A DNA stretch of 64,000 bases from Mobula hypostoma (lineage: Eukaryota), in assembly GCF_963921235.1 (NCBI RefSeq), contig NC_086108.1, forward strand, positions 8,804,001 through 8,868,000. Direction: 5' to 3'. How positions within the stretch are numbered: the stretch's first letter is position 1; each line of letters begins with the position of its first letter. A program made the translations under genes and the position numbers. The notes beneath the pieces were generated by a model. It searched no databases. It was not told the DNA's origin and saw only the letters and a list, made by a program, of their open reading frames with translations. Positions 11,304-64,000 of the stretch are shown piece by piece.

Positions 11304-11667
11304 GTAAGTTCTCAGCAGAAACTGATGGTGTCTTGGAGAAAGGGAGTCCTGACATCGTGGGCAGTTTGAAGACTTATGAGGTCAGGGCAAACTTTTAAAA
11401 TTCCTCAGCCTAAAGTTTGTATCTCACCACTGTCTCACTTCACAAACACGAGATTCTGCAGATTCTGGAAATCCAGAGCAACATGTACAAAACACTCAAA
11501 TCATCAACTCTTATTCCTGTCCATGGATGCTGCCTGACCTGCTGAGTTCCAACAGCATTTTGTGTGTGTTGTATTGTCTCTGCAATACATGCCCACACTC
11601 TCATGCACACCCACACACACACCTCCAAACTCAGGACGGGCTGCGTCCAGAGTCCCTACCCCAGATG

Positions 11668-13945
11668 TGGTGGAATTCTTCATTAATATGGAGAGTGACA
11701 TAGTTAATTCAGAAACAAAGGTTCTGAACTTAAAGAGGGGTAACTTTGAAGGTATGAGACGTGAATTAGCTAAGATAGACTGGCAAATGACACTTAAAGG
11801 ATTGACGGTGGATATGCAATGGCAAGCATTTAAAGGTTGCATGGATGAACTACAACAATTGTTCATCCCAGTTTGACAAAAGAATAAATCAAGGAAGGTA
11901 GTGCACCCATGGCTGACAAGAGAAATTAGGGATAGTATCAATTCCAAAGAAGTAGCATACAAATTAGCCAGAGAAAGTGGCTCACCTGAGGACTGGGAGA
12001 AATTCAGAGTTCAGCAGAGGAGGACAAAGGGCTTAATTAGGAAGGGGAAAAAAGATTATGAGAGAAAACTGGCGGGGAACATAAAAACAGACTGTAAAAG
12101 CTTTTATAGATATGTAAAAAGGAAAAGACTGGTAAAGACAAATGTAGGTCCCCTGCAGACAGAAACAGGTGAATTGATTATGGGGAGCAAGGACATGGCA
12201 GACCAATTGAATAATTACTTTGGTTCTGTCTTCACTAAGGAGGACATAAATAATCTTCCAGAAATAGTAAGGGACAGAGGGTCCAGTGAGATGGAGGAAC
12301 TGAGCGAAATACATGTTAGTAGGGAAGTGGTGTTAGGTAAATTGAAGGGATTGAAGGCAGATAAATCCCCAGGGCCAGATGGTCTGCATCCTAGCGTGCT
12401 TAAGGAAGTAGCCCAAGAAATAGTGGATGCATTAATGATAATTTTTCAAAACTCGTTAGATTCTGGACTAGTTCCTGAGGATTGGAGGGTGGCTAATGTA
12501 ACCCCACTTTTTAAAAATGGAGGGAGAGAGAAACCGGGGAATTATAGACCGGTTAGCCTAACGTCGGTGGTGGGGAAACTGCTGGAGTCAGTTATCAAGG
12601 ATGTGATAACAGCACATTTGGAAAGCGGTGAAATGATCAGACAAAGTCAGCATGGATTTGTGAAAGGAAAATCATGTCTGACGAATCTCATAGAATTTTT
12701 TGAGGATGTAACTAGTAGAGTGGATAGGGGAGAACCAGTGGATGTGGTATATTTGGATTTTCAAAAGGCTTTTGACAAGGTCCCACACAGGAGATTAGTG
12801 TGCAAACTTAAAGCACACGGTATTGGGGGTAAGGTATTGGTGTGGGTGGAGAATTGGTTAGCAGACAGGAAGCAAAGAGTGGGAATAAACGGAACCTTTT
12901 CAGAATGGCAGGCGGTGACTAGTAGGGTACCGCAAGGCTCAGTGCTGGGACCCCAGTTGTTTACAATATATATTAATGACTTGGATGAGGGAATTAAATG
13001 CAGCATCTCCAAGTTTGCGGATGACACGAAGCTAGGTGGCAGTGTTAGCAGTGAGGAGGATGCTAAGAGGATGCAGGGTGACTTGGATAGGTTGGGTGAG
13101 TGGGCAAACTCATGGCAGATGCAATTTAATGTGGATAAATGTGAAGTTATCCACTTTGGTGGCAAAAATAGGAAAACAGATTATTATCTGAATGGTGGCC
13201 GATTAGGAAAAGGGGAGGTGCAACGAGACCTGGGTGTCATTATACACCAGTCATTGAAAGTGGGCATGCAGGTACAGCAGGCGGTGAAAAAGGCGAATGG
13301 TATGCTGGCATTTATAGCGAGAGGATTCGAGTACAGGAGCAGGGAGGTACTACTGCAGTTGTACAAGGCCTTGGTGAGACCACACCTGGAGTATTGTGTG
13401 CAGTTTTGGTCCCCTAATCTGAGGAAAGACATCTTTGCCATAGAGGGAGTACAAAGAAGGTTCACCAGATTGATTCCTGGGATGGCAGGACTTTCATATG
13501 AAGAAAGACTGGATGAACTGGGCTTGTACTCGTTGGAATTTAGAAGATTGAGGGGGGATCTGATTGAAATGTATAAGATCCTAAAGGGATTGGACAGGCT
13601 AGATGCAGGAAGATTGTTCCCGATGTTGGGGAAGTCCAGAACGAGGGGTCACAGTTTGAGGATAGAGGGGAAGCCTTTTAGGACCGAGATTAGGAAAAAC
13701 TTCTTCACACAGAGAGTGGTGAATCTGTGGAATTCTCTGCCACAGGAAACTGTTGAGGCCAGTTCATTGGCTATATTTAAGAGGGAGTTAGATATGGCCC
13801 TTGTGGCTACGGGGGTCAGGGGGTATGGAGGGAAGGCTGGGGCGGGGTTCTGAGTTGGATGATCAGCCATGATCATAATAAATGGCGGTGCAGGCTCGAA
13901 GGGCCGAATGGCCTACTCCTGCACCTATTTTCTATGTTTCTATGT
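11668..13945 (+). mobile_element. young CR1 LINE, 5'-truncated (RT ORF 11901-13853 open)
   Basis: 650-aa ORF with SPGPDG, YLDFQKAFD, PQGSVLGP and KFADD. 3' stem-loop and (TTCTATGT)n tail. One nonsense change at 11874-11876. Confidence 0.95.
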
Positions 13946-19212: not shown

Positions 19213-19265
19213 TTTCAGCCAGAGGGTGGCTCTTTTTTAAATAATCTGGTGTTTGGTGTTTGCAG

Positions 19266-19813
19266 GGGTTGCAGGACATGGACCTGGAGATGTTGGCACC
19301 ATACATCTCCATGGAAGAAGACTTCCAGCTGAACAGCTTTGAGTCTTTGACGGAAGGAATCGAGGGGCTGGTGTGCCCTAATGATCACCCAGAGACGGAG
19401 ACCAACAAGCGGCAGGACAGTCGGGGTCTGGCCAAACTGCTGACCGACTGCAAGAGCACACAACCTAACGTGTTGGGCCGCTCGCACCCAGTGCAACCTG
19501 AAGTCCTTGGTGTGGCAGGAGACCCCGGAGCCTCACAGCAGTGCAGCGGCAGTCCCAGTCAGGGCAAGATCCAGGCGTACGGCCCCAGCAACCAGCCCCT
19601 TGTGTTCGGAGGGCCAGGATTCACTCCGACTGTGGAGAAAGCCCTCCGTGCGATATTCCAGCCCCAGGACACTGCCAGTCCCATGGAGACTGGAGTCTCT
19701 GAGTCACCCGGTAAGGAGCAGGATGCAGCAACACCAACGTTCCAGCCCACTAACCAATCGGACACCGGAGGCACGGAGAGTGAGAGCAGCCAGTGCACAC
19801 CATCCAAGGACAG
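19266..19813 (+). CDS. HIF3A: HIF3A-like exon, C-ODD / N-TAD with PHD-hydroxylated LxxLAP
   Basis: Acceptor tttgcag| and donor |gtatga. GLQDMDLEMLAPYISMEEDFQLNSF matches HIF3A LDLEMLAPYISMDDDFQLN. Open for 548 bp, phases 0/2. Confidence 0.93.
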
Positions 19814-20472
19814 GTATGAAACTTAATGTCTTATTATTGTAACAGTTATGAGGATAGTTTCTGCTGAAGGGCCTGTTTGTAGGGTGCATGACACTAAAAC
19901 CTTGTTGCTGGGACCTCAAACGAGTCCTCCAGAAGATGGCCTTCTTCATTCAGGGGGCTGAGTTCAAGAGCTGCAAGATAATGTTACAGCTCTATAAAAC
20001 CCTGGTTAGTCCACACTTGGAATATTGTAGTCAGTTCTGGTCACCTCATTACAGGAAGGATGTGGAAGCTTTCAAGAGGGTGCAGAGAAGACTTACTAGG
20101 ATGCTGCCTGGATTAGAGAGCATGTATTATGACAATAGGTTGATTAAATTCTTCGGATTTGATTCGAAGAAGGAGTCTGAGAGTCTGAGTGGGAGTGCCG
20201 AGAAAGAGATTTTTGAAATTTTCGTTATTTTTTTTCTCCAACGGCTTTCTGAGAGGCGGGACTGCGCAGGCGTGTGACGTCGGGCAGTGCAGCGCGGCAG
20301 ATTTAAAAGGAACAGAGCCTCAGAGAGCGGGCAGCGTAGTTTGCGGGCTGCGGAGTGAGCCGGGAGCAGAGTGAAGACTTAAGGGCTTCGGCTCAACGGG
20401 CTTAGGCGGAAGCGGGCGAGGCGAGGAAGGTTTGGCATTCATTTTCTGTTGCTATTTGAGGAGAGGGGCATT

Positions 20473-21408
20473 ATGACTGTGAGGGCAGTTTGCTGTTCTC
20501 GGTGTCGGATGTGGGAGGCCATGGAGTCTCCAAGCCTCCCGGACGTCTACATCTGCGCCAAGTGCATCGAGATGCAGCTCCTAAGGGACCGCGTTACGGA
20601 ACTGGAGCTGCAGCTCGATGACCTTCGTCTGGTCAGGGAGAGCGAGGAGGTGATAGAGAGGAGTGGAAGGCAGGTGGTCACGCCGGGGCCACGGGAGGCA
20701 GACAAGTGGGTCACGGTTAGGAGGGGGAAGGGGAAAAGGCAGGTGATGGGGAGTACCCCGGCGGCTGTGCCCCTTAACAACAGGTACTCCTGTTTGAGTA
20801 CTGTTGGAGGGGACAGCTTACCCGGGGGAAGCGACAGTGGCCCTGCCTCCGGCACAGAGTCTGGCCCTGTAGCTCAGAAGGGTAGGGCAAGGAAGAGGAG
20901 GGCAGTTGTGATAGGGGACTCGATAGTAAGGGGGTCAGATAGGCGATTCTGTGGACGCAGTCCAGAGACTCGGATGGTAGTTTGCCTCCCTGGTGCCAGG
21001 GTCCGGGATATTTCTGATCGTGTCCAAGATATCCTGAAGTGGGAGGGTGAAGAGCCAGAGGTCCTGGTACATATAGGTACCAATGACATAGGTAGGAAAA
21101 GGGATGAGGTCCTGAAAGAAGAATATAGGGAGCTAGGAAGGGAGTTGAGAAAAAGGACCGCAAAGGTAGTAATCTCGGGATTACTGCCTGTGCCACGCGA
21201 CAGTGAGAGTAGGAATGCGATGAGGTGGAGGATAAATGCGTGGCTGAGGGATTGGAGCAGGGGGCATGGATTCAAGTTTTTGGATCATTGGGACCTCTTT
21301 TGGCGCAGGTGTGACCTGTACAAAAAGGACGGGTTACACTTAAATCCTAGGGGGACCAATATCCTGGCAGGGAGATTAGCGGGGGCTACTGAGGTGACTT
21401 TAAACTAG
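20473..21408 (+). CDS. CR1 ORF1: Cys-rich zinc finger / leucine zipper plus SGNH esterase
   Basis: CSRCRMW..CAKC, a heptad Leu run, and GDSIVR, HIGTND and DGLHLN motifs. Confidence 0.9.
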   Translation: MTVRAVCCSRCRMWEAMESPSLPDVYICAKCIEMQLLRDRVTELELQLDDLRLVRESEEVIERSGRQVVTPGPREADKWVTVRRGKGKRQVMGSTPAAVPLNNRYSCLSTVGGDSLPGGSDSGPASGTESGPVAQKGRARKRRAVVIGDSIVRGSDRRFCGRSPETRMVVCLPGARVRDISDRVQDILKWEGEEPEVLVHIGTNDIGRKRDEVLKEEYRELGRELRKRTAKVVISGLLPVPRDSESRNAMRWRINAWLRDWSRGHGFKFLDHWDLFWRRCDLYKKDGLHLNPRGTNILAGRLAGATEVTLN

Positions 21409-21413
21409 AATGG

Positions 21414-24400
21414 TTGGGGGGTGGGAATCAAATTAAAGAGGCTAGGTGTGAGGAGGTTAGTTCACAACAGAGGGATGGGAACCAGTGCAGAGAGACAGAG
21501 GGGTGTAAAGTGAGCGTAGAAGCAAAAAGTACAAAGGGGAAAAGTAAAAGTGGCAGGCCGACAAATCCAGGGCAAGCATTAAAAAGGGCCACTTTTCAAC
21601 ATAATTGTATAAGGGCTAAGAGAGTTGTAAAAGAGCGCCTGAAGGCTTTATGTGTCAATGCAAGGAGCATTCGTAATAAGGTGGATGAATTGAAAGTGCA
21701 GATTGTTATTAATGATTATGATATAGTTGGGATCACAGAGACATGGCTCCAGGGTGACCAGGGATGGGAGCTCAACGTTCAGGGATATTCAATATTCAGG
21801 AGGGATAGACATGAAGGAAGGGGAGGTGGGGTGGCGTTGCTGGTTAAAAAAGAGATTAACGCAATAGAAAGGAAGGACATAAGCCGGGAAGATGTGGAAT
21901 CGATATGGGTAGAGCTGCGTAACACTAAGGGGCAGAAGATGCTGGTGGGAGTTGTGTACAGGCCACCTAACAGTAGTAGTGAGGTCGGAGATGGTATTAA
22001 ACAGGAAATTAGAAATGTGTGCAATAAAGGAACAGCAGTTATAATGGGTGACTTCAATCTACATGTAGACTGGGTGAACCAAATTGGTAAAGGTGCTGAG
22101 GAAGAGGATTTCTTGGAATGTATGCGGGATGGTTTTTTGAACCAACATGTCGAGGAACCGACTAGAGAGCAGGCTATTCTGGACTGGGTTTTGAGCAATG
22201 AGGAAGGGTTAATTAGCGATCTTGTCGTGAGAGGCCCCTTGGGTAAGAGTGACCATAATATGGTGGAATTCTTCATTAACATGGAGAGTGACGTAGTTAA
22301 TTCAGAAACAAAGGTTCTGAACTTAAAGAGGGGTAACTTTGAAGGTATGAGTCGTGAATTAGCTAAGATAGACTGGCAAATGACACTTAAAGGATTGACG
22401 GTGGATATGCAATGGCAGGCATTTAAAGGTTGCATGGATGAACTACAACAATTGTTCATCCCAGTTTGGCAAAAGAATAAATCAAGGAAGGTAGTGCACC
22501 CGTGGCTGACAAGAGAAATTAGGGATAGTATCAATTCCAAAGAAGTAGCATACAAATTAGCCAGAGAAAGTGGCTCACCTGAGGACTGGGAGAAATTCAG
22601 AGTTCAGCAGAGGAGGACAAAGGGCTTAATTAGGAAGGGGAAAAAAGATTATGAGAGAAAACTGGCAGAGAACATAAAAACGGACTGTAAAAGCTTTTAT
22701 AGATATGTAAAAAGGAAAAGACTGATAAAGACAAATGTAGGTCCCCTGCAAACAGAAACAGGTGAATTGATTATGGGGAGCAAGGACATGGCAGACCAAT
22801 TGAATAATTACTTTGGTTCTGTCTTCACTAAGGAGGACATAAATAATCTTCCAGAAATAGTAAGGGACAGAGGGTCCAGTGAGATGGAGGAACTGAGCGA
22901 AATACATGTTAGTAGGGAAGTGGTGTTAGGTAAATTGAAGGGATTGAAGGCAGATAAATCCCCAGGGCCAGATGGTCTGCATCCCAGAGTGCTTAAGGAA
23001 GTAGCCCAAGAAATAGTGGATGCATTAGTGATAATTTTTCAAAACTCGTTAGATTCTGGACTAGTTCCTGAGGATTGGAGGGTGGCTAATGTAACCCCAC
23101 TTTTTAAAAAAGGAGGGAGAGAGAAACCGGGGAATTATAGGCCGGTTAGCCTAACGTCGGTGGTGGGGAAACTGCTGGAGTCAGTTATCAAGGATGTGAT
23201 AACAGCACATTTGGAAAGCGGTGAAATGATTGGACAAAGTCTAAGGAAAATCATGTCTGACGAATCTCATAGAATTTTTTGAGGATGTAACTAGTAGAGT
23301 GGATAGGGGAGAACCAGTGGATGTGGTATATTTGGATTTTCAAAAGGCTTTTGACAAGGTCCCACACAGGAGATTAGTGTGCAAACTTAAAGCACACGGT
23401 ATTGGGGGTAAGGTATTGGTGTGGGTGGAGAATTGGTTAGCAGACAGGAAGCAAAGAGTGGGAATAAACGGGACCTTTTCAGAATGGCAGGCGGTGACTA
23501 GTGGGGTACCGCAAGGCTCAGTGCTGGGACCCCAGTTGTTTACAATATATATTAATGACTTGGATGAGGGAATTAAATGCAGCACCTCCAAGTTTGCGGA
23601 TGACACGAAGCTGGGTGGCAGTGTTAGCAGTGAGGAGGATGCTAAGAGGATGCAGGGTGACTTGGATAGGTTGGGTGAGTGGGCAAACTCATGGCAGATG
23701 CAATTTAATGTGGATAAATGTGAAGTTATCCACTTTGGTGGCAAAAATAGGAAAACAGATTATTATCTGAATGGTGGCCGATTAGGAAAAGGGGAGGTGC
23801 AACGAGACCTGGGTGTCATTATACACCAGTCATTGAAAGTGGGCATGCAGGTACAGCAGGCGGTGAAAAAGGCGAACGGTATGCTGGCATTTATAGCGAG
23901 AGGATTCGAGTACAGGAGCAGGGAGGTACTACTGCAGTTGTACAAGGCCTTGGTGAGACCACACCTGGAGTATTGTGTGCAGTTTTGGTCCCCTAATCTG
24001 AGGAAAGACATCTTTGCCATAGAGGGAGTACAAAGAAGGTTCACCAGATTGATTCCTGGGATGGCAGGTCTTTCATATGAAGAAAGACTGGATGAACTGG
24101 GCTTGTACTCGTTGGAATTTAGAAGATTGAGGGGGGATCTGATTGAAACGTATAAGATCCTAAAGGGATTGGACAGGCTAGATGCGGGAAGATTGTTCCC
24201 GATGTTGGGGAGGTCCAGAACGAGGGGTCACAGTTTGAGGATAGAGGGGAAGCCTTTTAGGACCGAGATTAGGAAAAACTTCTTCACACAGAGAGTGGTG
24301 AATCTGTGGAATTCTCTGCCACAGCAAACTGTTGAGGCCAGTTCATTAGCTATGTTTAAAAGGAAGTTAGATATGGCCCTTGTGGCTACAGGGGTCAGGG

Positions 24401-24426
24401 GGTATGGAGGGAAGGCTGGGTTCTGA
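21414..24426 (+). pseudogene. CR1 ORF2 (APE endonuclease plus RT), frameshifted by a small deletion at ~23240
   Basis: NARSI, ITETW, YRPP, GDFN, SDHN and RT motifs are present. The QHGFV codons are missing relative to the copy at ~12650. Confidence 0.9.
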
Positions 24427-24647
24427 GTTGGATGATCAGCCATGATCATAATAAATGGCGGTGCAGGCTCGAAGGGCCGAATGGCCTACTCCTGCACCTA
24501 TTTTCTATGTTTCTATAAATTAGGGCCTTTCTCTTTGGAGTGAAGGAGGATGAGAGGTGACTTGATAGAGGTGTACAAGATGATAAGAGGTGTAGATCGA
24601 GTAGACAGCCAGAGACTTCTTCCCAGTGTGAAAATGGCTTACACAAG

Positions 24648-30968: not shown

Positions 30969-32258
30969 ATAGAAACATAGAAACATAGAAAATAGGTGCA
31001 GGAGTAGGCCATTCGGCCCTTCGAGCCTGCACCGCCGTTTATTATGATCATAGAAACATAGAAAATAGGTGCAGGAGTAGGCCATTCGGCCCTTCGAGCC
31101 TGCACCGCCATTTATTATGATCATGGCTGATCATCCAACTCAGAACCCCGCCCCAGCCTTCCCTCCATACCCCCTGACCCCCGTAGCCACAAGGGCCATA
31201 TCTAACTCCCTCTTAAATATAGCCAATGAACTGGCCTCAACAGTTTCCTGTGGCAGAGAATTCCACAGATACACCACTCTCTGTGTGAAGAATTTTTTCC
31301 TAATCTCGGTCCTAAAAGGCTTCCCCTCTATCCTCAAACTGTGACCCCTCGTTCTGGACTTCCCCAACGTCGGGAACAATCTTCCTGCATCTAGCCTGTC
31401 CAATCCCTGTAGGATCTTATACGTTTCAATCAGATCCCCCCTCAATCTTCTAAATTCCAACGAGTACAAGCCCAGTTCATCCAGTCTTTCTTCATATGAA
31501 AGTCCTGCCATCCCAGGAATCAATCTGGTGAACCTTCTTTGTACTCCCTCTATGGCAAAGATGTCTTTCCTCAGATTAGGGGACCAAAACTGCACACAAT
31601 ACTCCAGGTGTGGTCTCACCAAGGCCTTGTACAACTGCAGTAGTACCTCCCTGCTCCTGTACTCGAATCCTCTCGCTATAAATGCCAGCATACCATTCGC
31701 CTTTTTCACCGCCTGCTGTACCTGCATGCCCACTTTCAATGACTGGTGTATAATGACACCCAGGTCTCGTTGCACCTCCCCTTTTCCTAATCGGCCACCA
31801 TTCAGATAATAATCTGTTTTCCTATTTTTGCCACCAAAGTGGATAACTTCACATTTATCCACATTAAATTGCATCTGCCATGAATTTGCCCACTCACCCA
31901 ACCTATCCAAGTCACCCTGCATCCTCTTAGCATCCTCCTCACAGCTAACACTGCCACCCAGCTTCGTGTCATCCGCAAACTTGGAGATGCTGCATTTAAT
32001 TCCCTCATCCAAGTCATTAATATATATTGTAAACAACTGGGGTCCCAGCACTGAGCCTTGCTGTACCCCACTAGTCACCGCCTGCCATTCTGAAAAGGTC
32101 CCGTTTATTCCCACTCTTTGCTTCCTGTCTGCTAACCAATTCTCCACCCACACCAATACCTTACCCCCAATACCGTGTGCTTTAAGTTTGCACACTAATC
32201 TCCTGTGTGGGACCTTGTTAAAAGCCTTTTGAAAATCCAAATATACCACATCCACTGG
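30969..32258 (-). mobile_element. young CR1 LINE, 5'-truncated, with duplicated 3' terminus
   Basis: 373-aa RT ORF 31140-32261; tail plus stem-loop present twice (30969-31049 and 31050-31122). Confidence 0.95.
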
Positions 32259-33690
32259 CATGATCAGTAAGGGCTCCCAGATGGTCTTATTTCCCCGTAA
32301 ATAAGAAACGGTTGCTTAAACAGAAAACTGGGTCTCGTAGCATGAAAGGGGGAAACAAAAGAAAGACGAGGAAAACCGCAACAAAACCCGAAGAGAAGCG
32401 ATAAAGTACCGACTGACGGTGAGGACACTGACGACGGCGCTAGCAACCAAGCTGAACACGAGGATACGGAGGCTGTTCATGCGAACGTCATGGCCGGAAT
32501 ACGGGCGCTTCGTTCGGACATGAAAAAAGAACTGAGTGATTCCTTGGGTTTTCTAAAGAAGGAGCTGGTAGATTTCAGAGAAGAAATTAACCAGAAGCTG
32601 AAGGCTATTGTTGGTGATTTAAAAGAAGTAACGGTTAGAGTTGAGGATATGGAGCAAAGGGTGGCAGAAGTGAAGAAATGGAATGCCAAAGCCAGGGAGG
32701 TTCTTTCCCGCGCACTGGAACTTCAGGAGATCATTCAAGCTCGACTAACGGACCTGGAGGCCCGTTCACGCAGGAATAACGTACTTTCCGAAGGGGCGGA
32801 AGGAGACAACATACAGGAATTTCTGGAAAAATTTTTTAAAACAGAGTTGTCCCTTCCCGATGCCGCCCTCTGTGTACAACACTGCCTTTGATCTCTTGGA
32901 TCCAGACCAGCACAAGGTTCCAACCCAAGGTCCGAGGTCATCTACTTTCTGGAGTATAAAATTAAAGAGTTGGTGCTTCGCTCTGCTTGGAAAAAATAAG
33001 AGATTTATTATGATGGGAAAAGAGTATTTTTTGATCAAGACTACCCGACCAAAATACTTATGAAAAGAAAGGCTTACTCCACCATCAGAAAAACGCTTAA
33101 AGCAAAGGGGCTCCAGTTCCAGACTCTTTACCCAGCCAAACTTCGAGTGTTTTTGACACTGGACAAGTCATCTACAGTAACGCATCGGAGGCGACGGAAG
33201 ACCTGAAGAACTGGGGATTTTTCCCGGACTGTCCCGGAATCGTGGCCCCCGCGGAAGTCACAGCCACCAAGAAACTGAGACAACTTTCCTGGGAGGCAGC
33301 TGGTGCAAAATCCCGCCGGGACTGAGAAACATATCTGAAACGCATCCAGGACAAGCTAAAGGAATTTTGACGCAACAAAGATACTGCGTGAGAGCTCTCA
33401 AAAGTATAGTGATAAAATATCCTTCAGCCAGGTCGGTAAAATCACATCTACCCTAACACCAAACTATAATTGACTTTGTATAAGAACTTAAAAATAGAAC
33501 ATAAATTATTTTTCCTCTGTAAGCTCTTATTACTATAACTAACCTGACCACAAACCTGGGAGTTGATGTTTGATTTTGTTCTTTTTTTGTGCAGTGTCGT
33601 GATTTCAATTATTCAGAGGCATCAACCTGCACTAGGAGGGGCCCCTTCGGGTTTAAGGGCTCTCTCTCCCCCCACCGACTTAGAAGTTTA

Positions 33691-34985: not shown

Positions 34986-35477
34986 GAAGTTTAAACTTCA
35001 AAGGTGGAAGTCACAGATGTTATGTGTTGTTTATATGTTAAATGTTAGTTTGTTGTACAGACAGAAGTTCATTTGTTTAGGTCATCTCGGGATTTTTAAC
35101 TATTTATATAAACCCTTTTTTACTGGTGTGGAATGCCGTATCAAGAATACAGAGTAATCACCCTTAATGTGAATGGGTTATAGAACCCAATCAAAAGAAT
35201 TTAGCTCTAGCTAAAATGAAGAGAGAAAAGCAAGATATAATTTTTTGGCAAGAAACTCACCTTTCAAAAATTGAACATGAGAAGTTACGCAAAATGGGAT
35301 TTAAAAATTGTTGTTACTCTTTTGAGAGGGGAAACGCAAGGGGAGTTGCAATATTAATCTCAAATAAAGTAAATTTCCGGTTTTCCTCGCAGATTACAGA
35401 CAAAGAAGAGCGTTATTTACTGGTGAAGGGTTTTATTGATCATAAAGAAGTTACACTAAATGTTTCATTTGTGGAAA

Positions 35478-38400
35478 CAACAGTTTCCTGTGGCAGAGAA
35501 TTCCACAGATTTTAGGACCGAGATTAGGAAAAACTTCTTCACACAGAGAGTGGTGAATCTGTGGAATTCTCTGCCACAGGAAACTGTTGAGGCCAGTTCA
35601 TTGGCTATGTTTAAGAGGGAGTTAGATATGGCCCTTGTGGCTACAGGGGTCAGGGGGTATGGAGGGAAGGCTGGGGCGGGGTTCTGAGTTGGATGATCAG
35701 CCATGATCATAATAAATGGCGGTGCAGGCTCGAAGGGCCGAATGGCCTACTCCTGCACCTATTTTCTATGTTTCTATTCACCACTCTCTGTGTGAAGAAG
35801 TTTTTCCTAATCTCGGTCCTAAAAGGCTTCCCCTCTATCCTCAAACTGTGACCCCTCGTTCTGGACTTCCCCAACATCGGGAACAATCTTCCTGCATCTA
35901 GCCTGTCCAATCCCTTTAGGATCTTATACGTTTCAATCAGATCCCCCCTCAATCTTCTAAATTCCAACGAGTACAAGCCCAGTTCATCCAGTCTTTCTTC
36001 ATATGAAAGTCCTGCCATCCCAGGAAATCAATCTGGTGAACCTTCTTTGTACTCCCTCTATGGCAAAGATGTCTTTCCTCAGATTAGGGGACCAAAACTG
36101 CACACAATACTCCAGGTGTGGTCTCACCAAGGCCTTGTACAACTGCAGTAGTACCTCCCTGCTCCTGTACTCGAATCCTCTCGCTATAAATGCCAGCATA
36201 CCATTTGCCTTTTTCACCGCCTGCTGTACCTGCATGCCCACTTTCAATGACTGGTGTATAATGACACCCAGGTCTCGTTGCACCTCCCCTTTTCCTAATC
36301 GGCCACCATTCAGATGATAATCTGTTTTCCTATTTTTGCCACCAAAGTGGATAACTTCACATTTATCCACATTAAATTGCATCTGCCATGAGTTTGCCCA
36401 CTCACCCAACCTATCCAAGTCACCCTGCATCCTCTTAGCATCCTCCTCACTGCTAACACTGCCACCCAGCTTCGTGTCATCCGCAAACTTGGAGATGCTG
36501 CATTTAATTCCCTCATCCAAGTCATTAATATATATTGTAAACAACTGGGGTCCCAGCACTGAGCCTTGCTGTACCCCACTAGTCACCGCCTGCCATTCTG
36601 AAAAGGTCCCGTTTATTCCCACTCTTTGCTTCCTGTCTGCTAACCAATTCTCCACCCACACCAATACCTTACCCCCAATACCGTGTGCTTTAAGTTTGCA
36701 CACTAATCTCCTGTGTGGGACCTTGTCAAAAGCCTTTTGAAAATCCAAATATACCACATCCACTGGTTCTCCCCTATCCACTCTACTAGTTACATCCTCA
36801 AAAAATTCTATGAGATTCGTCAGACATGATTTTCCTTTCACAAATCCATGCTGACTTTGTCCGATCATTTCACCGTTTTCCAAATGTGCTGTTATCACAT
36901 CTTTGACAACTGACTCCAGCAGTTTCCCCACCACCGACGTTAGGCTAACCGGTCTATAATTCCCCAGTTTCTCTCTCCTTCCTTTTTTAAAAAGTGGGGT
37001 TACATTAGCCACCCTCCAATCCTCAGGAACTAGTCCAGAATCTAACGAGTTTTGAAAAATTATCACTAATGCATCCACTATTTCTTGGGCTACTTCCTTA
37101 AGCACTCTAGGATGCAGACCATCTGGCCCTGGGGATTTATCTGCCTTCAATCCCTTCAATTTACCTAACACCACTTCCCTACTAACATATATTTCACTCA
37201 GTTCCTCCATCTCACTGGACCCTCTGTTCCTTACTATTTCTGGAAGATTATTTATGTCCTCCTTAGTGAAGACAGAACCAAAGTAATTATTCAATTGGTC
37301 TGCCATGTCCTTGCTCCCCATAATCAATTCACCTGTCTCTGTCTGCAGGGGACCTACATTTGTCTTTACCAGTCTTTTCCTTTTTACATATCTATAAAAG
37401 CTTTTACAGTCCGTTTTTATGTTCCCTGCCAGTTTTCTCTCATAATCTTTTTTCCCCTTCCTAATTAAGCCCTTTGTCCTCCTCTGCTGAACTCTGAATT
37501 TCTCCCAGTCCTCAGGTGAGCCACTTTCTCTGGCTAATTTGTATGCTACTTCTTTGGAATTGATACTATCCCTAATTTCTCTTGTCAGCCACGGGTGCAC
37601 TACCTTCCTTGATTTATTCTTTTGCCAGACTGGGATGAACAATTGTTGTAGTTCATCCATGCAACCTTTAAATGCTTGCCATTGCATATCCACGGTCAAT
37701 CCTTTGTGTCATTTGCCAGTCTATCTTAGCTAATTCACGTCTCATACCTTCAAAGTTACCCCTCTTTAAGTTCAGAACCTTTGTTTCTGAATTAACTATG
37801 TCACTCTCCATATTAATGAAGAATTCCACCATATTATGGTCACTCTTACCCAAGGGGCCTCTCACGACAAGATCGCTAATTAACCCTTCCTCATTGCTCA
37901 AAACCCAGTCCAGAATAGCCTGCTCTCTGGTTGGTTCCTCGACATGTTGGTTCAAAAAACCATCCCGCATACATTCCAAGAAATCCTCTTCCTCAGCACC
38001 TTTACCAATTTGGTTCACCCAGTCTACATGTAGATTGAAGTCACCCATTATAACTGCTGTTCCTTTATTGCACACATTTCTAATTTCCTGTTTAATACCA
38101 TCTCCGACCTCACTACTACTGTTAGGTGGCCTGTACACAACTCCCACCAGCGTCTTCTGCCCCTTAGTGTTACGCAGCTCTACCCATATCGATTCCACAT
38201 CTTCCCGGCTTATGTCCTTCCTTTCTATTGCATTAATCTCTTCTTTAACCAGCAACGCCACCCCACCTCCCCTTCCTTCATGTCTATCCCTCCTGACTAT
38301 TGAATATCCCTGAACGTTGAGCTCCCATCGCTGGTCACCCTGGAGCCATGTCTCTGTGATCCCAACTATATCATAATCATTAATAACAATCTGCACTTTC

Positions 38401-40107
38401 AATTCATCCATCTTATTACGAATGCTCCTTGCATTGACACATAAAGCCTTCAGGCGCTCTTTTACAACTCTCTTAGCCCTTATACAATTATGTTGAAAAG
38501 TGGCCCTTTTTAATGCTTGCCCTGGATTTGTCGGCCTGCCACTTTTACTTTTCTCCTTTGTACTTTTTGCTTCTACCCTCACTTTACACCCCTCTGTCTC
38601 TCTGCACTGGTTCCCATCCCTCTGTTGTGAACTAACCTCCTCACGCCTAGCCTCTTTAATTTGATTCCCACCCCCCAACCATTCTAGTTTAAAGTCACCT
38701 CAGTAGCCCTCGCTAATCTCCCTGCCAGGATATTGGTCCCCCTAGGATTCAAGTGTAACCCGTCCTTTTTGTACAGGTCACGCCTGCGCCAAAAGAGGTC
38801 CCAATGATCCAAAAACTTGAATCCCTGCCCCCGCTCCAATCCCTCAGCCACGCATTTATCCTCCACCTCATCGCATTCCTACTCTCACTGTCGCGTGGCA
38901 CAGGCAGTAATCCCGAGATTACTACCTTTGCGGTCCTTTTTCTCAACTCCCTTCCTAGCTCCCTATATTCTCCTTTCAGGACCTCATCCCTTTTCCTACC
39001 TATGTCATTGGTACCTATATGTACCACGACCTCTGGCTCCTCACCCTCCCACTTCAGGATATCTTGGACATGATCAGAAATATCCCGGACCCTGGCACCA
39101 GGGAGGCAAACTACCATCCGGGTCTCTGGACTGCGTCCACAGAATCGCCTATCTGACCCCCTTACTATCGAGTCCCCTATCACAACTGCCCTCCTCTTCC
39201 TTGCCCTACCCTTCTGAGCTACAGGGCCGGACTCTGTGCCGGAGGCACGGCCACTGTCGCTTCCCCCGGGTAAGCTGTCCCCCCCAACAGTACTCAAACA
39301 GGAGTACCTGTTGTTAAGGGGCACAGCCACCGGGGTACTCCCTATTACCTGACTCTTCCCCTTCCCCCTTCTAACCGTGACCCACTTGTCTGCCTCCCGT
39401 GGCCCCGGTGTGACCACCTGCCTTCCACTCCTCTCTATCACCTCCTCGCTCTCCCTGACTAGACGAAGGTCATCGAGCTGCAGCTCCAGTTCCGTAACGC
39501 GGTCCCTTAGGAGCTGCATCTCGATGCATTTGGCGCAGATGTAGACGTCCGGGAGGCTTGGAGACTCCAGGGCCTCCCACATCCGACACCGAGAACAGCA
39601 AACTGCCCTCACAGTCATAATGCCCCTCTCCTCAAATAGCAACAGAAAATGAATGTCAAACCTTCCTCGCCTCGCCCGCTTCCGCCTAAGCCCGTTGAGC
39701 CGAAGCCCTTAAGTCTTCACTCTGCTCCCGGCTCACTCCGCAGCCCGCAAACTACGCTGCCCGCTCTATGAGGCTTTGTTCCTTTTAAATCTGCCGCGCT
39801 GCACTGCCCGACGTCACATGCCTGCGCAGTCCCGCCTCTCAGAAAGCCGTTGGAGAAAAAAAAATAACGAAAATTTCAAAAATGTCTTTCTCGGCACTCC
39901 CACTCAGACTCTCAGACTCCTTCTTCGAATCAAACCCGAAGCAGGATGTCTGCCCTTTTAAATCTGCCGCGCTGCACTGCCCGACGTCACACGCCTGCGC
40001 AGTCCCGCCTCTCAGAAAGCCGTTGGAGAAAAAAAAAATAACGAAAATTTCAAAAATCTCTTTCTCGGCACTCCCACTCAGACTCTCAGACTCCTTCTTC
40101 GAATCAA
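35478..40107 (-). mobile_element. near-full-length young CR1 LINE (frameshifted), lacking its own 3' tail
   Basis: ORF1 38684-39642 and ORF2 pieces 37668-38678, 35999-37699 and 35707-36018. Nearly identical to 20151-24515. Confidence 0.95.
35511..35776 (+). mobile_element. short CR1 3' end in antisense inside the minus-strand CR1
   Basis: Runs from tttaggaccgag to the ctatgtttct tail; the host sequence cacagat|tcaccact is split around it. Confidence 0.85.
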
Positions 40108-43100
40108 TATATGGAGAGAGTTACACCCACTTGCTGGACATTTCAGCTTATTTTTTCCTCACCCCCACTCCGTGTACTCGAGAATAGATTATTTTTTATG
40201 TTTAATTCAGAGAGACACAGGATTATAAAATGCGATATAGGGGTAAGAGACATCTCTGACCACGCAGGGGTTAACTTAACATTACATTTAGACAACAAGC
40301 CCAAAGATACCTTGTGGGACTTAATACCAGTCTTTTGAATGAAGCCCTATATTCAAAATACCTAAAGAAAGAGTTTGAAGATTATACGATATATAATGAT
40401 GAGGAACAGTGTCCCCCAGAACTCTGTGGGATGCTGCAAAAGCTGTTATTAGGGGTAAACTCATAAAGTAGCCAGCTCTGAAGAAAAAGGAAAAAGAGAA
40501 ACAAATCAAGGATCTTACTGAAAAATTACAATTTTTGGAGAGTAAGCATATGGAGTATAATGACAGTAATGTCTTGAATCAAATTTTGGATACAAAACAA
40601 ACTGTAAATAATATTTATGAAAGTGAAGTTGAGAAGAGAACTAAGTTTGTTAAACAAACTTTCTATGAGAATAGTCCCAAATCTAAGAAATTACTTGCAT
40701 GGAGAATATGTAAACATCAGGCTGAGAGATCCATACACAGGGTGAAAGACCCCCAGGCTAATAAGATGCTTCACAAATTGGAAGACATGCAAAAATCTTT
40801 CAAAACCTACTACATAATGTTATACGCTCAACCCAAAGCTGCAGAGTTAGCAGACATATCTAACTTCTTAACGTCCTTAGATTTACCATCTGTAGGAACG
40901 GAGCAAAATAAAGTAATAACTCAGGAGATAACAGAAGAAGAAATAGGTAAGGCTATATCAGCATTAAAAACAAATAAAATCTCAGGCGTTGATGGCTATC
41001 CAGCGGAATGGTACAAAACTTTCAGAGAGATAATAATACCAATACTTAAGAAATGTTTTAATTATGTTCTCGGAGGAGGGGAGACTCCATTGTCCTGGAA
41101 TCAAGCAATAATTTTAGTAGTTCCTAAAAATGGTAAGGATCGGACTAAATGCAGTTTCTATAGGCCCATATCTGTTCTAAACATAGATTGTAGATTATTT
41201 GCATCAATATTAGTAAAAAGATTGGAAAATATAATTCTAGATCTAATTGACACAGGTCAAACAGGTTTTGTAAAAAATAGGCAAATCCAGGACAATGTGA
41301 GACGGGCCCTTCATCTCATTGACCACAGGAGCAATAATAACCTGGAATCTGTAGTTATTAGCCTTGATGCTGAAAAGGCCTTTGACTCGGTACTTGGTGC
41401 TTAAGCAGTTTGGCTTCAATAATCAGGTAGTTGGATGTCTGAAATCTTTATATTCTTCCCCTACAGCCAGAATTAAAATAAATGGGAATTTATCTAAAAC
41501 AATATTTCTTGAAAGGGGATGCCGACAAGGGTGCCCCTTAAGCCCCACGCTTTTCGCTCTTTTCATTGAGCCATTGGCCCAGGCAATTGGAGAAGACACG
41601 ATCATAACAGGTGTACTGATCAGAGATACAGAATATAAGATTTGTCTGTATGCGGATGACATTCTCGTGACTCTTACCAGTCCCAATGCAGGTTTGCCTA
41701 AATTATTATCCCTGCTGAAAGAATTTGGTTCCTACTCTGGCGATAAATTAAATTTACATAAAACCCAAACTTTGAATTTTAATTACGAACCACAAGAAAA
41801 CATTTACAGAATGAGTAAATTCCAATGGAAAGGTAATATTATTAAATACCTAGGAGTACAAATACCTAAAGACTTGTCTACTATCTACGAACATAATTAT
41901 ATTCCCATGACAGCTGATATTAGGCAGACTTAAACAGATGTTCACTGCTGCCAGTGAATATGTATAATCGAATAGAAGCCGTAAAGATGAATGTATTACC
42001 TAGATTGCTCTTTCTTTTTCAATCATTGCCTGTTGAAGTACCTTTTAAGCAATTTAATGAATGGAAAAGAATGATTTCAACATTTATTTGGGGAAAACAG
42101 AAACCAAGAATTAGATTTCAGACATTACAGCTGCGTAAGGATAAAGGTGGATTTGCTGCGCCTTGCTTTGAAGACTATTACAGAGCAGCACAGCTGCACA
42201 GTCTGGTCTGTTGGGGTGACCCTAATTGTGAGGCAAAGTGGAAGGATTTAGAGCAAAGTCTAATAAATATCCCTCTCCAATCTTCACTGGTGGATAAAAT
42301 ACTCCAAAGAAGCATTTAAATAAACTGACTCAGTGGACAATGGTCCCACTAAACATCTGGTATAAAGAATTGAAAGACCCAAAATTTGAAAGAAATGTAA
42401 AAATACTACGTTGGGTGGCACATGACACAGAATTCCTCCCAGCACAATTGGGTGGTAGGTTTACACATTGGACAAGTAAGGGAATCACCTCATACTGTAC
42501 AATATCTTCCATTAAGGGCTTGGCGTCCTTTCAACAACTCACAGAAACATATCACTTAGAGAAACAAAACTTCTTTAGATATCTTCAAAATATTTAAACT
42601 ATTGGAGAGAAAGGTTAAGTCTGATTAATATATTCATTGATGTGCCTAAAGGAATTTTAAAAAGAAACATAACCAGGATTTACTCGATTTTACAATCTAA
42701 CAGGGGTCTCTCCACAATGTATGTTAAATCAAAATGGGAGAGAGAAGCCAACATATAATTGACAGAAGATGATTGGTTAAACATACGCAGAACACATTCG
42801 ACTACTTCAAGCTCAGGTCTGTGGAGGGAATTCACCTGGAAGAATACCTTAAGATTTTTCATAACGCCAAAAATATAGAAGTTACAAAGTATCAGACCTG
42901 AACAAGGTCAATTTTGGAGAATGTGTGATAATGTGTTGGCTGATCATTTTCATATTTTCTGGGAGTGTCCAAAGATTCTGTCTTATTGGTTAGATGTGGT
43001 AACAGAGATAAGATCGATAATCAGCCCAGCAATTAATTTTGACTTTATCGTTATTTGGGTAATGTACCAAATAAGCTCAAAATTCATGAAAGATATTTGT

Positions 43101-47379: not shown

Positions 47380-48025
47380 AGAAACATAGAAACATAGAAA
47401 ATAGGTGCAGGAGTAGGCCATTCAGCCCTTCGAGCCTGCACCGCCATTTATTATGATCATTGCTGATCATCCAACTCAGAACCCCGCCCCAGCCTTCCCT
47501 CCATACCCCCTGACCCCTGTAGCCACAAGGGCCATATCTAACTCCCTCTTAAATATAGCCAATGAACTGGCCTCAACAGTTTCCTGTGGCAGAGAATTCC
47601 ACAGATTCACCACTCTCTGTGTGAAGAAGTTTTTCCTAATCTCAGTCCTAAAAGGCTTCCCCTCTATCCTCAAACTGTGACCCCTCTTTCTGGATTTCCC
47701 CAACATCGGGAACAATCTTCCTTCATCTAGCCTGTCCAATCCCTTTAGGATCTTATACGTTTCAATCAGATCCCCCCTCAATCTTCTAAATTCCAACGAG
47801 TACAAGCCCAGTTCATCCAGTCTTTCTTCATATGAAAGTCCTGCCATCCCAGGAATCAATCTGGTGAACCTTCTTTGTACTCCCTCTATGGCAAAGATGT
47901 CTTTCCTCAGATTAGGGGACCAAAACTGCACACAATACTCCAGGTGTGGTCTCACCAAGGCCTTGTACAACTGCAGTAGTACCTCCCTGCTCCTGTACTC
48001 GAATCCTCTCACTATAAATGCCATA
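47380..48025 (-). mobile_element. young CR1 3' fragment
   Basis: RGFEYRSREVLLQ...GKAGAGF ORF and tail matching the young family. Confidence 0.9.
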
Positions 48026-51618: not shown

Positions 51619-54410
51619 TGTAGTATATAGATCTATTTCTTTTAGAGCAATGAGCCCCTCCCCCTTTAGTGTTACGTATTGGTATGTTGTCTGCGCGATG
51701 TGAATACACCTGTTAAAGTCGCCTCCTGCATACGGCTTTTATTTAATCAACATGTAGCTGTGCACAGTCACAACAAATTGGCAACAAGTACGAACCTGAA
51801 TGTCAGAAAATAACACGAACTGCACAACAGTTATGGGATGAAATAGCGAGAGTTAAACAGCACGAGAAAGCCGAAAGCCCTGTGAGTAACAGTGAAAGAC
51901 GCACTGAATTTAAAGTGAAAGTAACGCTGTGGTGGCTTGAGTCAGGAAAGTTGGTGAATTTGATAGCACTAATGAAAGCTGGGAGTTGTATATTGAGAGA
52001 GTTGAACTGTATTGTAACACAAATTTTGGAGGAGCAAAGACCCTACACTTCTTAACAGGTCATGGATGGACAGTCTCTCATGCAGCCTAGTAACCCATGA
52101 GAAGCCAGCAAGCAAGACATTCAATGAAATTCTTACAATTTTACAAAATCACTTGAGCCCTAAACTGCTGGTAATAGCTGAGAGATTTAGATTTTACAAA
52201 AGGAACCAGTCAAAGGATGAAAGCATTTCTGAATACATTGTAGAACTGCACAAACTTTCCCAGTACTGTGACATTAAAGATGGCTTTTCTGATGCATTAA
52301 GGTGCATTGATGCATTCTGATGCTTGTATGTGGCATGCATAGTCAAAGCACCCAAAAGAGGCTACTGTCTGAACGAGACTTAATCTTAGAATGGGCATTG
52401 ACCATTGAGACTGCAGCAAAGGGCACTGCAGAACTACAGAAAAGGAGGTTACAATGTGAAATGCACAAATTGTCCCTGAATGGTGCAAAAAGCAAAAAAA
52501 TGTCATCAATGTGACAAAACCTCCCATGATGCAAACAACTTGGTTCACAGACAAAGTCTGCAGAAAGTGTAGAGAGAATGTGCAAGGCAGACAAAAAGCA
52601 CAACCGAGTGAAAAGCAAATGCATAAAGTTACAAATGTAAAACAGAATTAGACAACATAGAGTCTGACAAAGGTGAACTGTCATGCCCAGCACTGCATGG
52701 TATTACTGAAGCAGATCACAAGATCATATGGATCACAATAGATGTTTCTGGTGTAAAACTGAAACTGGAGCTGGATACAGGGTCAGTTTTGTCCGTAATT
52801 CCAGAGGCTGACTACAACAGACCGTTTCCTAAGATACCATCAGAGAAGACTTCAGTGGTGCTAAAGACTTACACAGGCAGAGACAAACTGAAGGCGAATG
52901 TGATGTATGGAGGCCAAACACAACTTAGAAATGTGTTTATCAAAAACTGAGGACCAGCATTTTTCAGATGTGAACGCTTTGAGAAAAATCCAACTAAACT
53001 GGCACACGATCAAAGCTCTCAGTGTGGCATCATCAGGCAAAGGCAGCACTGATCAGAGACTGTCACAGCAGCTTAATGCTAATGAGAAGGTATTTGAGAA
53101 GAGGACTGGAAGCAGCAACTCCAAAATTCCGTAAAGTGCGTCCAGTGCCTTATGCACTATGTCCTAAGTGGCTGCAGAACCTCAGGGTGTGGAGAAGTCC
53201 AGAATTCTCTCCCAGGTTGAGTGGAGTGATTGGGTCACGCCCTTTGTCCCAGTGATCAAGAACAGGAAGGTCCGAGCTGTTCGCGTTCATGGGGACTTCA
53301 ATGTGAGCATCAGCCCTGTGCTGTGTACCGAGCAGTTTCCTCTGCCATGAATAGATTTTTGCATCCTTGGCACGTGGGAAGAGGTTTTCAAAGACTGATT
53401 TGTTACATGCTTATCTGCAAATGGAGACAGAGGAATCATGTTCCTCAGAGTCGACATTCACAAGGGATTGTTCCAGTATAATCGTCTCATCTTTGGCAAC
53501 ATATCAGCTCCAGCAACTTGGCAAAGAGTAATAGCCCAAGTGCTCCAAGGTATCCTGGAACATAGTGTTACCTTGATAACATCATCATGACTGGCAAAAA
53601 TGATGAAGCACACCTCCAGAACCTTGGTAGAGTGCTTACCAGACTGGGTGGGTGTGGTCTGTGCACAAAGAGAGAGAAATGCGAGTTTTTCAACAATAAA
53701 ATCTCACATTGTGGATGTTATTGACAAGCATAGCTTACATAAGTAAGAAGTGAAGACTGGAGCGGTGCTATAGACACCCAAACCGGGAAATGTGTCACAA
53801 CTCAGGTCATACTTGGGCCTTGTAAACTTCTACCACCGGTTTCTCCCAAACATTGCTACAGTGCTGCACCCATTGAACACACTGTTACAGGCAGGAGCAA
53901 AGTGGGAATGGTCAGAAAGATGTGAAAGAGCATTCAGGGAATCAGAGTCTAGTAACATCAGATGAATTGTTCACCCATTATGACCCATCCCTGCCCATCA
54001 GACTGGCGTGTGATGCATGCCTTTACGCCATTAGAGCCATTTTGGCACACATTATGAAAGGTGGGTCTGAACGCCCGATTGTGTTTGCTTCAAGATCACT
54101 GACAAGCATAGAACACAACTATGCACAGATTGACAGAGTCTAGTTCCACCAATACCTCTGCAGACAAAAGTTTACTCTAGTGACTGACCACCAGCCTCTT
54201 GTGTCCATTTTCAACCCCAAGAACGGGATTCCAGTAACGACTGCTACGCAGTTACAACGCTGGGCACTATTCCGAGGAGCCCACTCTTATGACATATAAC
54301 TCAACGGTACCAAACAACACAGCAATGCTGATGGCTTGTTACATCTTCCACTATTGGCAACTGAAGAGGAAAAGTCTTCATACTGCGACCCAGCAGAGGT
54401 GTTCCACACT
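51619..54410 (+). mobile_element. decayed Gypsy LTR retrotransposon (5' LTR ~51619-51775, gag, PR, RT, RNase H; integrase and 3' LTR not seen)
   Basis: TGTAGTAT...CAACA followed by PBS-like TGGCAAC. gag WELYIERVE and VIAERFRFYKRNQ; protease LELDTGS; RT WVTPFVPVIK..GDF; RNase H LACDAC..FASRSLT..NYAQID. Many stops and frameshifts. Confidence 0.85.
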
Positions 54411-63918: not shown

Positions 63919-64000
63919 GGAATTCCAGACCAGAGTTTAGGACTCAAGCTGCTGAAGGCGTAGTGGAGTGGGGGTTTATAATTAAATTCTGCGCTGATTA

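Follow-up and report, generated by a model that had tools for sequence, protein, structure and literature searches.

A conserved slippery heptamer at the end of ORF1 points to probable -1 frameshifting in a CR1-type LINE of Mobula hypostoma

The window analysed here is a stretch of 64,000 nucleotides of Mobula hypostoma DNA (NC_086108.1, positions 8,804,001 to 8,868,000 of the forward strand), which contains two closely related copies of a CR1-type LINE (Table 1). In the plus-strand copy, ORF2 is disrupted by a frameshift near 23240-23280, and in the minus-strand copy, one indel breaks ORF1 and another breaks ORF2. The sequence around the ORF1/ORF2 junction is identical in the two copies. ORF1 matches Lipase_GDSL_2 in Pfam (E 1e-16), and its profile matches the ZfL2-1 esterase (4C1B, E 7e-45). 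An esterase ORF1 alone is not diagnostic of CR1, because L2 elements also have one. The window element combines this type of ORF1, including the N-terminal Cys motifs, with an ORF2 encoding an APE endonuclease and a reverse transcriptase (Pfam). Its 3′ UTR contains hairpins (MFE -30.4 kcal/mol, folded without a shuffle control) and an octamer microsatellite without poly(A), the 3′ arrangement by which vertebrate CR1 is defined according to PMC4316615. Based on this architecture and on the CR1-labelled elements of PMC13343379 that share the junction, the window element is most likely a vertebrate canonical CR1 LINE.

Table 1. Features of the two CR1-type copies in the window
Feature	Position	Strand	Basis or remark
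CR1-type LINE, full-length copy, ~4.37 kb	20151..24515	+	TAAATT TSD 20145-20150 / 24516-24521
ORF1, 311 aa, ATG 20473	20473..21408	+	N-terminal CxxC..CxxC, C-terminal SGNH/GDSL esterase, Leu-Asn-stop end
ORF1 esterase motifs	GDS 20914, GTND 21076, DGLHL 21328	+	Motif positions
-1-frame stop TGA, 6 nt before the heptamer	21390..21392	+	Frame reading
ORF2, -1 frame	21393..24426	+	Pfam Exo_endo_phos, RVT_1
Slippery heptamer U_UUA_AAC, predicted -1 shift site	21399..21405	+	X_XXY_YYZ phase in ORF1
ORF1 stop TAG, directly 3′ of the heptamer	21406..21408	+	ORF1 end reads ACT TTA AAC TAG
Basic linker, about 84 codons, ORF2 frame, ATG absent	21406..21656	+	Near-cognates TTG 21414, GTG 21510, CTG 21639
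G6 run, candidate 3′ stimulator	21416..21421	+	Conserved G5 at 10-14 nt after the heptamer
ORF2 landmarks	NARSI 21657, ITETW 21732, SDHN 22248, FADD 23593	+	First three APE endonuclease; FADD reverse transcriptase
3′ UTR	24427..24515	+	Hairpins, 8-nt tail unit repeated twice, poly(A) absent
Second copy, near full length	35776..39941	-	97.9% identical to the 20151-24515 copy
Minus-copy heptamer and stop	38687-38693, stop 38684-38686	-	Sequence comparison with the plus copy

An earlier note on this DNA, made from the sequence alone, had described a TTTAAAC heptamer in X_XXY_YYZ phase before the ORF1 stop, an ORF2 in the -1 frame, a G-rich tract shortly downstream and the same arrangement in the minus copy. 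Frame reading and comparison of the copies confirmed each of these points. ORF2 is open from 21393 through the NARSI and ITETW motifs and overlaps ORF1 by only 16 nt (21393-21408), and the G-rich tract begins at 21412. Within the window alone, TTTAAACTAG is matched five times with at most one mismatch against 4.34 expected, which is not beyond chance, and both exact matches are copies of the one 97.9%-identical element. A chance origin of the motif is argued against by the relatives of the element rather than by counts in the window.

The search for metagenome loci used a motif located upstream in ORF1 and made no use of the heptamer. Of the 43 loci, 20 extend to the end of ORF1; the other 23 terminate or are interrupted short of its stop codon and were excluded. 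Nineteen of the 20 carry the heptamer where ORF1 ends (17 TTTAAAC, one GTTAAAC and one TTTAAAT; absent in L037), and the DNA upstream of it is only 36-90% alike among the loci. The phase conservation that the earlier note had named as a check on its reading was borne out: the heptamer lies in the esterase-frame phase in the intact loci and is offset by indels in three decayed ones (L002, L031 and L036). It is followed by TAG in 15 of the 20 junctions, by TAA in one and by TGA in one. The first-base variant G_UUA_AAC (L009) retains TTA AAC, and its -1 frame is open. From the heptamer to the endonuclease motif, the -1 frame is open in all 12 junctions that have the motif in frame, and their linkers span 38-90 codons; no in-frame endonuclease motif was found in the remaining eight junctions, which are truncated or decayed. 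An in-phase heptamer and an open downstream -1 ORF are both features of canonical -1 programmed frameshifting. In 9/20 junctions the -1 frame is blocked 3-6 nt before the heptamer, which makes this nearly the sole entry to ORF2. Copies of the window family were taken from the window itself and from sequencing-run contigs. Across four runs from four organisms, positions 21396-21434 showed zero substitutions at a frequency of at least 3%, and 34 variable positions lay elsewhere in 21280-21520. By inspection, 11 of the 12 TTTAAACTAG matches in a published CR1-group library are located at the ORF1 end. The U_UUA_AAC that precedes the ORF1 stop belongs to the conserved sequence of this CR1-type LINE.

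For a comparison of silent sites, the junctions, window included, were placed into 12 groups by single linkage at 75% nucleotide identity. TTA and AAC are each found in 12/12 groups and the preceding base is T in 11 (G once), whereas the modal frequency at ten upstream third positions is only 3-6 of 12. ORF1 codon usage is 14% TTA among Leu codons, 34% AAC among Asn codons and 25% T at third positions; the groups share ancestry, and probabilities computed per group overstate their independence. Nucleotide conservation inside the heptamer exceeds coding need. These data bear on a protein constraint or inertia, by which the esterase would require a C-terminal Leu-Asn and its codons would have been inherited by chance. 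Leu-Asn is nearly invariant in the ORF1 alignment, and the related elements have a common ancestry. However, this explanation is largely refuted by the fixed TTA, AAC and preceding T beside saturated third positions, and we give it hardly any credence. The ZfL2-1 esterase also folds without reaching the Leu-Asn columns, its crystallised chain ending about two profile positions before them, and two positions of a downstream G5 run that are silent in the ORF2 frame are fixed (18/19 and 18/18).

Among ORF1 homologs, 132/192 end in Leu-Asn at identities down to about 28%. They span rays, sharks, coelacanth, frogs, turtles, squamates and one bird, and in 130 of the 132 the residue before Leu-Asn can be encoded with a final T. 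Sixteen of the remaining 60 have GN, KN or GF as their last residues, the dipeptides encoded by other highly shifty heptamers (a post hoc test on protein only), and in 44 the last two residues fit no strict heptamer. Other lineages appear to swap to other shifty heptamers. No relatives supplying DNA of the GN, KN or GF lineages were found in viral contigs (three scans), plasmids or phages, and a scan of genome contigs gave four loci, three unrelated and one a decayed 506-nt ORF1 fragment without the junction. A protein search for long natural fusions of ORF1 and ORF2 gave five, which are weak evidence either way. P0121, P0036 and P0057 were rejected as evidence of fusion, since they resemble gene models or copies that carry indels; they enter the -1 frame as Phe-Lys-Leu, consistent with the heptamer.

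Downstream of the heptamer, GGGGG begins exactly 10 nt away in 16 of the 18 junctions long enough to show the offset, and several published consensi have a spacing of about 6 to 13 nt or lack the run. The G-quadruplex that the earlier note had proposed as a stimulator is not a conserved feature: a 3-tier motif occurs in 0/19 junctions and a loose 2-tier motif in 7/19. Local folding of the 19 junctions gave z scores from -1.94 to +1.64, none below -2, with models that do not treat pseudoknots explicitly. No duplex shared across junctions was found for long-range or upstream pairing of the G-run, and Rfam returned one chance match only (15 bits; gathering score 60). The 3′ stimulatory RNA structure of canonical -1 frameshifting was not found in the 19 junctions, and the efficiency of frameshifting could be low because a conserved stimulatory structure is lacking.

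The motif could be another RNA or DNA signal, for protein binding, packaging, splicing or recombination, that resembles a slippery site by chance. Silent-site conservation shows a nucleotide-level role only, and the G5 run is sequence-specific and unstructured, both of which such a signal would accommodate. However, it would not have to lie in X_XXY_YYZ phase or be joined to a -1-frame ORF2, the G_UUA_AAC variant keeps TTA AAC together with its open -1 frame, and the ORF1 ends of distant lineages are dipeptides that other shifty heptamers encode; we regard this explanation as very improbable. Readings of the motif as a splice acceptor or an L1 target site were rejected by reasoning only. A pyrimidine tract is missing from the motif, and a branch point would adjoin the AG.

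Ribosomes might instead terminate at TAG and restart at a downstream AUG or near-cognate codon (TTG 21414 or GTG 21510), producing a separate ORF2 protein and leaving the heptamer and G-run as a reinitiation signal or a relic. Reinitiation is the model published for L1 and SART1, as presented in PMC2881922 and PMC3894237. Some relatives carry suitable start codons: in L001, L002, L006 and L012 an in-frame ATG lies 2 nt past the stop, in L030 the two overlap as TAATG, a linker Met is present in 7 of the 12 junctions with an in-frame endonuclease motif, and the sister-family protein P0281 (89% identical in the endonuclease) has a Met at the position of GTG 21510. The description of ORF2 as ATG-less in the earlier note consequently stands for the window family and fails as a general statement. 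The codon 2 nt past the stop, however, is not conserved (ATG, GTG, TCG, TGG, GCA and others), five of the 12 junctions, including the window family, have no linker Met, and the first Met of related ORF2 proteins is scattered from 4 to 90 residues before the endonuclease (predicted starts, some of which may be GTG or TTG). The ATG at 21410 is out of the ORF2 frame and opens 8 codons only, and an in-frame stop-start overlap of the SART1 type occurs in 1/20 junctions (L030). As the earlier note had stated, the first ORF2-frame Met of the plus copy, at 21939, is ACG in the minus copy; there, a Met already occurs within the endonuclease at codon 95 counted from the heptamer, a codon that reads GTG in the plus copy. 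Reinitiation predicts neither the fixed TTA and AAC upstream of the stop nor the swaps to GN, KN and GF, and we consider it unlikely.

We consider it probable that the CR1-type LINE makes an ORF1-ORF2 fusion by -1 programmed frameshifting at U_UUA_AAC. The frameshift proposed in the earlier note gains strong comparative support from the silent sites, the -1 frame and the apparent heptamer swaps, from which we infer the fusion product. In the proposed mechanism, UUA would occupy the ribosomal P site and AAC the A site, and the tRNAs would re-pair to UUU and AAA, one base back. Slipped ribosomes would bypass UAG and continue as Leu-Glu-Trp. The pause would be caused by the adjacent stop and by the G5 run at the mRNA entry channel, probably not by an RNA fold, and the G5 run would most plausibly act through a putative G-run-binding protein. 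The predicted product is a fusion of ORF1, linker, endonuclease and reverse transcriptase of about 1,300 residues, and the 311-residue ORF1 protein would be far more abundant. Frameshifting would fix a gag-pol-like ratio of the two proteins and tether the ORF2 protein to the ORF1 protein. A wider reading, put forward tentatively and with rather less than an even chance, is that a retrovirus-like -1 frameshift in esterase-ORF1 CR1 elements predates the divergence of jawed vertebrates, with distant lineages swapping among the four most shifty heptamers, a structure-free G5 stimulator 10 nt downstream read by a protein of the host or of the element, as a cellular counterpart to the trans-activated frameshifting of PRRSV, and a membrane-targeting esterase-endonuclease-reverse transcriptase fusion as the product.

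In birds, reptiles and sharks, CR1 LINEs with an esterase ORF1 dominate among the retrotransposons, and the translation of LINE ORF2 has been described as an open question (PMC3894237). Slippage, if true, would explain how CR1, whose ORF1 has this ending in rays as well as in birds, produces the reverse transcriptase of so widespread an element. The most widespread vertebrate LINE group would then make a Gag-Pol-like fusion in which an esterase is covalently joined to the reverse transcriptase, and ORF2 annotations and engineered CR1 constructs would begin at the wrong place. The junction would also offer a natural, deeply conserved and apparently structure-free frameshift cassette for study in vertebrate cells.

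U_UUA_AAC ranks among the most shifty heptamers according to PMC5009743. Frameshifting in IBV and other coronaviruses and in retroviral gag-pol relies on a heptamer of the same class, placed in phase where a structural ORF ends, and has the enzyme ORF in the -1 frame. In contrast to these systems, the host of the window site is a non-LTR retrotransposon, the stop adjoins the heptamer, Pfam found no protease domain in ORF2, and no pseudoknot or stem was found 3′ of the site, pseudoknots not being explicitly modelled. In PRRSV, according to PMC5009743, nsp1beta and poly(C)-binding protein bind a C-rich motif 11 nt after the shift site. This is likewise a short unstructured motif at a fixed 3′ distance, comparable to the G5 run at 10 nt, but the window motif is G-rich; the analogy is geometric only, and a G5-binding protein is hypothetical. 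Dictyostelium TRE5-A and TRE3-A are APE-RT LINEs like the window element, and their ORF2 requires a -1 frameshift as described in a review (PMC5911963), on which this likeness is based. They differ in the kingdom of the host, in an ORF1 not described as an esterase, in targeting tRNA genes and in an oligo(A) tail. L1 and SART1 also have a bicistronic LINE RNA with ORF2 dependent on ORF1 translation, whereas the window family has a conserved slippery site instead of an in-frame stop-start overlap or AUG. The earlier note had cautioned that overlapping CR1 ORFs may already have been reported; our literature search, whose coverage excluded the primary papers of 1997 and 2003, found no report of CR1 frameshifting. 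Vertebrate canonical CR1 (type IVB; CR1 subgroup 7, Metcalfe and Casane 2014; PMC13343379) has in common with the window element the esterase ORF1 with Cys motifs, the APE-RT ORF2, the 3′ hairpin and the octamer repeat. Its published descriptions never use the word frameshift in their main text, whereas the window element carries a conserved slippery site.

The ORF1 of the plus-strand CR1 element ends with ACT TTA AAC TAG, and the heptamer T TTA AAC (21399-21405) sits in X_XXY_YYZ phase. The -1 frame, ORF2, opens 6 nt before the heptamer, after a TGA, and continues via an 84-codon linker into the endonuclease (EN); its first Met is at 21939, and it carries APE and reverse transcriptase domains. 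The junction sequence is identical between the plus and minus copies. An earlier note had described this arrangement from the sequence alone, and all of its coordinates were borne out. Near-matches to the motif in the window (5 observed vs 4.34 expected) are unremarkable, so the case depends on relatives. In run X1, about 4% of the depth has lost one base of the G6 run (21416-21421). Following the predicted shift, ORF2 would then no longer be read in frame, which fits dead copies.

Principal features located in the window
Feature	Position	Strand	Remarks
Full-length CR1-type LINE	20151-24515	+	TAAATT target-site duplication
Second LINE copy	35776-39941	-	97.9% identical to the plus copy
ORF1	20473-21408	+	311 aa, SGNH esterase
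Open frame with LAPYISMEEDFQL motif	19245-19826	+	

LINE fragments are dense throughout the animal DNA of the window, and the closest named homolog of its ORF1 is a Mobula hypostoma protein (98% identity). The plus copy is inserted in an older CR1-like 3' fragment (19858-20150 and 24516-24640), whose reading frame resumes past the target-site duplication. A duplicate of the element's first ~150 nt (98.7%) lies at 39954-40107 on the minus strand, just upstream of the 5' end of the minus copy, and may be a tandem 5' repeat unit or the product of a template jump. Six more 5'-truncated copies of the family (11665-13942, 31051-32258, 35510-35776, 47387-48023, 61126-61747 and 62739-63927) are 96-98% identical, which indicates recent activity. 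By eye, 32346-33167, 35168-35515 and 40472-42319 look like L1/Tx1-type LINE ORF fragments, 52018-52950 like a Gypsy gag-protease, and 512-1283 like another reverse transcriptase family. The LAPYISMEEDFQL motif resembles the motif for oxygen-dependent degradation in HIF-alpha proteins, and a HIF-alpha-like gene may carry the LINE in one of its introns.

The query for the metagenome scan was a motif further upstream in ORF1 rather than the heptamer. It returned 43 host-DNA loci, 20 of which extend to the ORF1 end while 23 fall short. A heptamer is present there in 19 of the 20 (17 TTTAAAC, one GTTAAAC and one TTTAAAT), locus L037 being the sole exception. Together with that of the window there are 20 junctions, with upstream DNA 36-90% alike, and they fall into 12 groups at 75%. 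All 12 groups have TTA and AAC, and 11 have a T just before them. At ten upstream third positions the modal base reaches only 3-6 of the 12 groups, and these saturated silent sites serve as a control for shared ancestry. From ORF1 codon usage, T-TTA-AAC has a chance of about 1.2% per element, although shared ancestry inflates any joint probability. The -1 frame is uninterrupted from the heptamer to the EN motif in all 12 junctions with an in-frame motif, over linkers 38-90 codons long; the remaining 8 junctions are decayed or truncated. Locus L009 carries a G_UUA_AAC variant near 672-678, with the G-run 3 nt closer and the -1 ORF2 intact.

In contigs from four runs and four organisms, no substitutions at 3% or above fall in 21396-21434, whereas the rest of the 241 nt has 34 variable positions; such contigs drop rare variants, and two of the runs have low cover. 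Diverged families in three runs hold TTTAAA in the same register within loose ends. In the part of the PMC13343379 supplement covered, a search by the motif itself over the first 400 nt per consensus, without a denominator, gave 12 TTTAAACTAG matches. By our reading, 11 are at the ORF1 end (names read as alligator, crocodile (3), bowfin, frog, chimaera, coelacanth, sawfish, dogfish and a teleost Crack element) and one is in a 5' UTR.

In the proteins, C-terminal Leu-Asn (LN), the dipeptide that TTA AAC encodes in the window element, ends 84 of the 98 first-search homologs reaching the esterase end, 48 of 112 new 50%-cluster representatives, and 132 of 192 proteins whose ORF stops 3-25 residues beyond the profile end. 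Carriers include rays, sharks, Latimeria, Hyla, Xenopus, turtles, squamates and Calypte, at identities down to about 28%. The residue preceding LN allows a T-ending codon in 130 of the 132, where incompatible residues are expected at about 13%. The ZfL2-1 esterase crystal chain (4C1B, E 7e-45) ends about two profile positions short of the LN columns, so the fold seemingly does not need LN. CR1 ORF1 sequences are also filed under Pseudomonas aeruginosa (P0021), Protopolystoma xenopodis (P0082) and a Providencia contig (L047), probably through contamination with vertebrate DNA.

The 60 ends other than LN include 16 with GN (11), KN (3) or GF (2), where slippery-compatible dipeptides are expected at 4.4% (p 5e-9; by clusters 9/30, p 4e-6), and the residue before them is compatible with the required first base in all cases. 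Another 8 have a slippery-compatible dipeptide one residue earlier. These are apparent swaps to other heptamers, ranked as support and not proof because the pattern was noticed before the test and is known from protein alone. In a distant ORF1 group (P0181, P0199, P0210, P0224, P0239, P0247 and P0254; alignment A5), Lys-Asn is conserved at about 8-13 residues from the stop, as a possible A_AAA_AAC site that does not adjoin it.

The heptamer junction is a real and deeply conserved feature. From its sequence, we consider it probable that it functions in the manner of a retroviral -1 frameshift cassette, in line with the frameshifting that the earlier note proposed; the fixed heptamer codons and the open -1 frame (12/12) favor this reading, whereas a conserved 3' structure does not accompany them. 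No stable fold was found 3' of the site (z from -0.88 to +0.51 at first, and from -1.94 to +1.64 over 19 junctions), nor any recurring long-range pairing partner in these 19. The suggested G-quadruplex stimulator is not conserved, with 3-tier motifs in 0/19 and 2-tier motifs in 7/19 junctions. What the CR1 junction has instead of the classical 3' structure of programmed -1 frameshifting is a G5 run at a fixed distance: GGGGG lies at exactly 10-14 nt past the heptamer in 16/18 junctions, and two of its positions are silent in the ORF2 frame. In the published consensi covered, some share this spacing, and others have the run at about 6-13 nt or no run. The stop codon adjoining the heptamer may add a pause.

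For L1 and SART1, the model given in the covered parts of PMC2881922 and PMC3894237 is reinitiation, in which ORF2 would be started anew after the ORF1 stop. The lack of an ATG in ORF2 holds for the window family but not generally: an in-frame linker Met occurs in 7/12 junctions, in four it follows the stop by 2 nt, and L030 carries TAATG. In the sister family, P0281 has a Met at the position of GTG 21510 of the window family, where the P0282 model begins. Reinitiation nevertheless leaves unexplained why the codons ahead of the stop are fixed, and we regard it as unlikely to be the general mechanism, although some CR1 lineages may use it or it may act together with frameshifting. All other explanations together seem less likely still.

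A full-text literature search returned no proposal of CR1 frameshifting; novelty is provisional because the primary descriptions outside its scope (Haas 1997, Kajikawa 1997, Kapitonov and Jurka 2003) may already mention ORF overlap. The word 'frameshift' is absent from the main text of PMC4120745, PMC3905857, PMC13343379 and PMC4316615, and 'CR1' from the first 300,000 characters of PMC5009743. The literature covered also includes passages of PMC11835228, PMC6609765, PMC2881922, PMC9004415, PMC5006619, PMC4255032 and PMC3894237, and portions of the supplements of PMC4120745, PMC3905857 and PMC13343379. LINE frameshifting has a precedent, since TRE5-A and TRE3-A require a -1 frameshift according to the covered part of PMC5911963; that of PMC5009743 mentions frameshifting in HeT-A gag. 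The same part of PMC5009743 describes a PRRSV shift whose stimulator is a C-rich motif that lies 11 nt downstream and is bound by protein. The G5 run of CR1 begins at 10 nt, and this likeness, which is one of geometry only, suggests that the run may be read by a protein.
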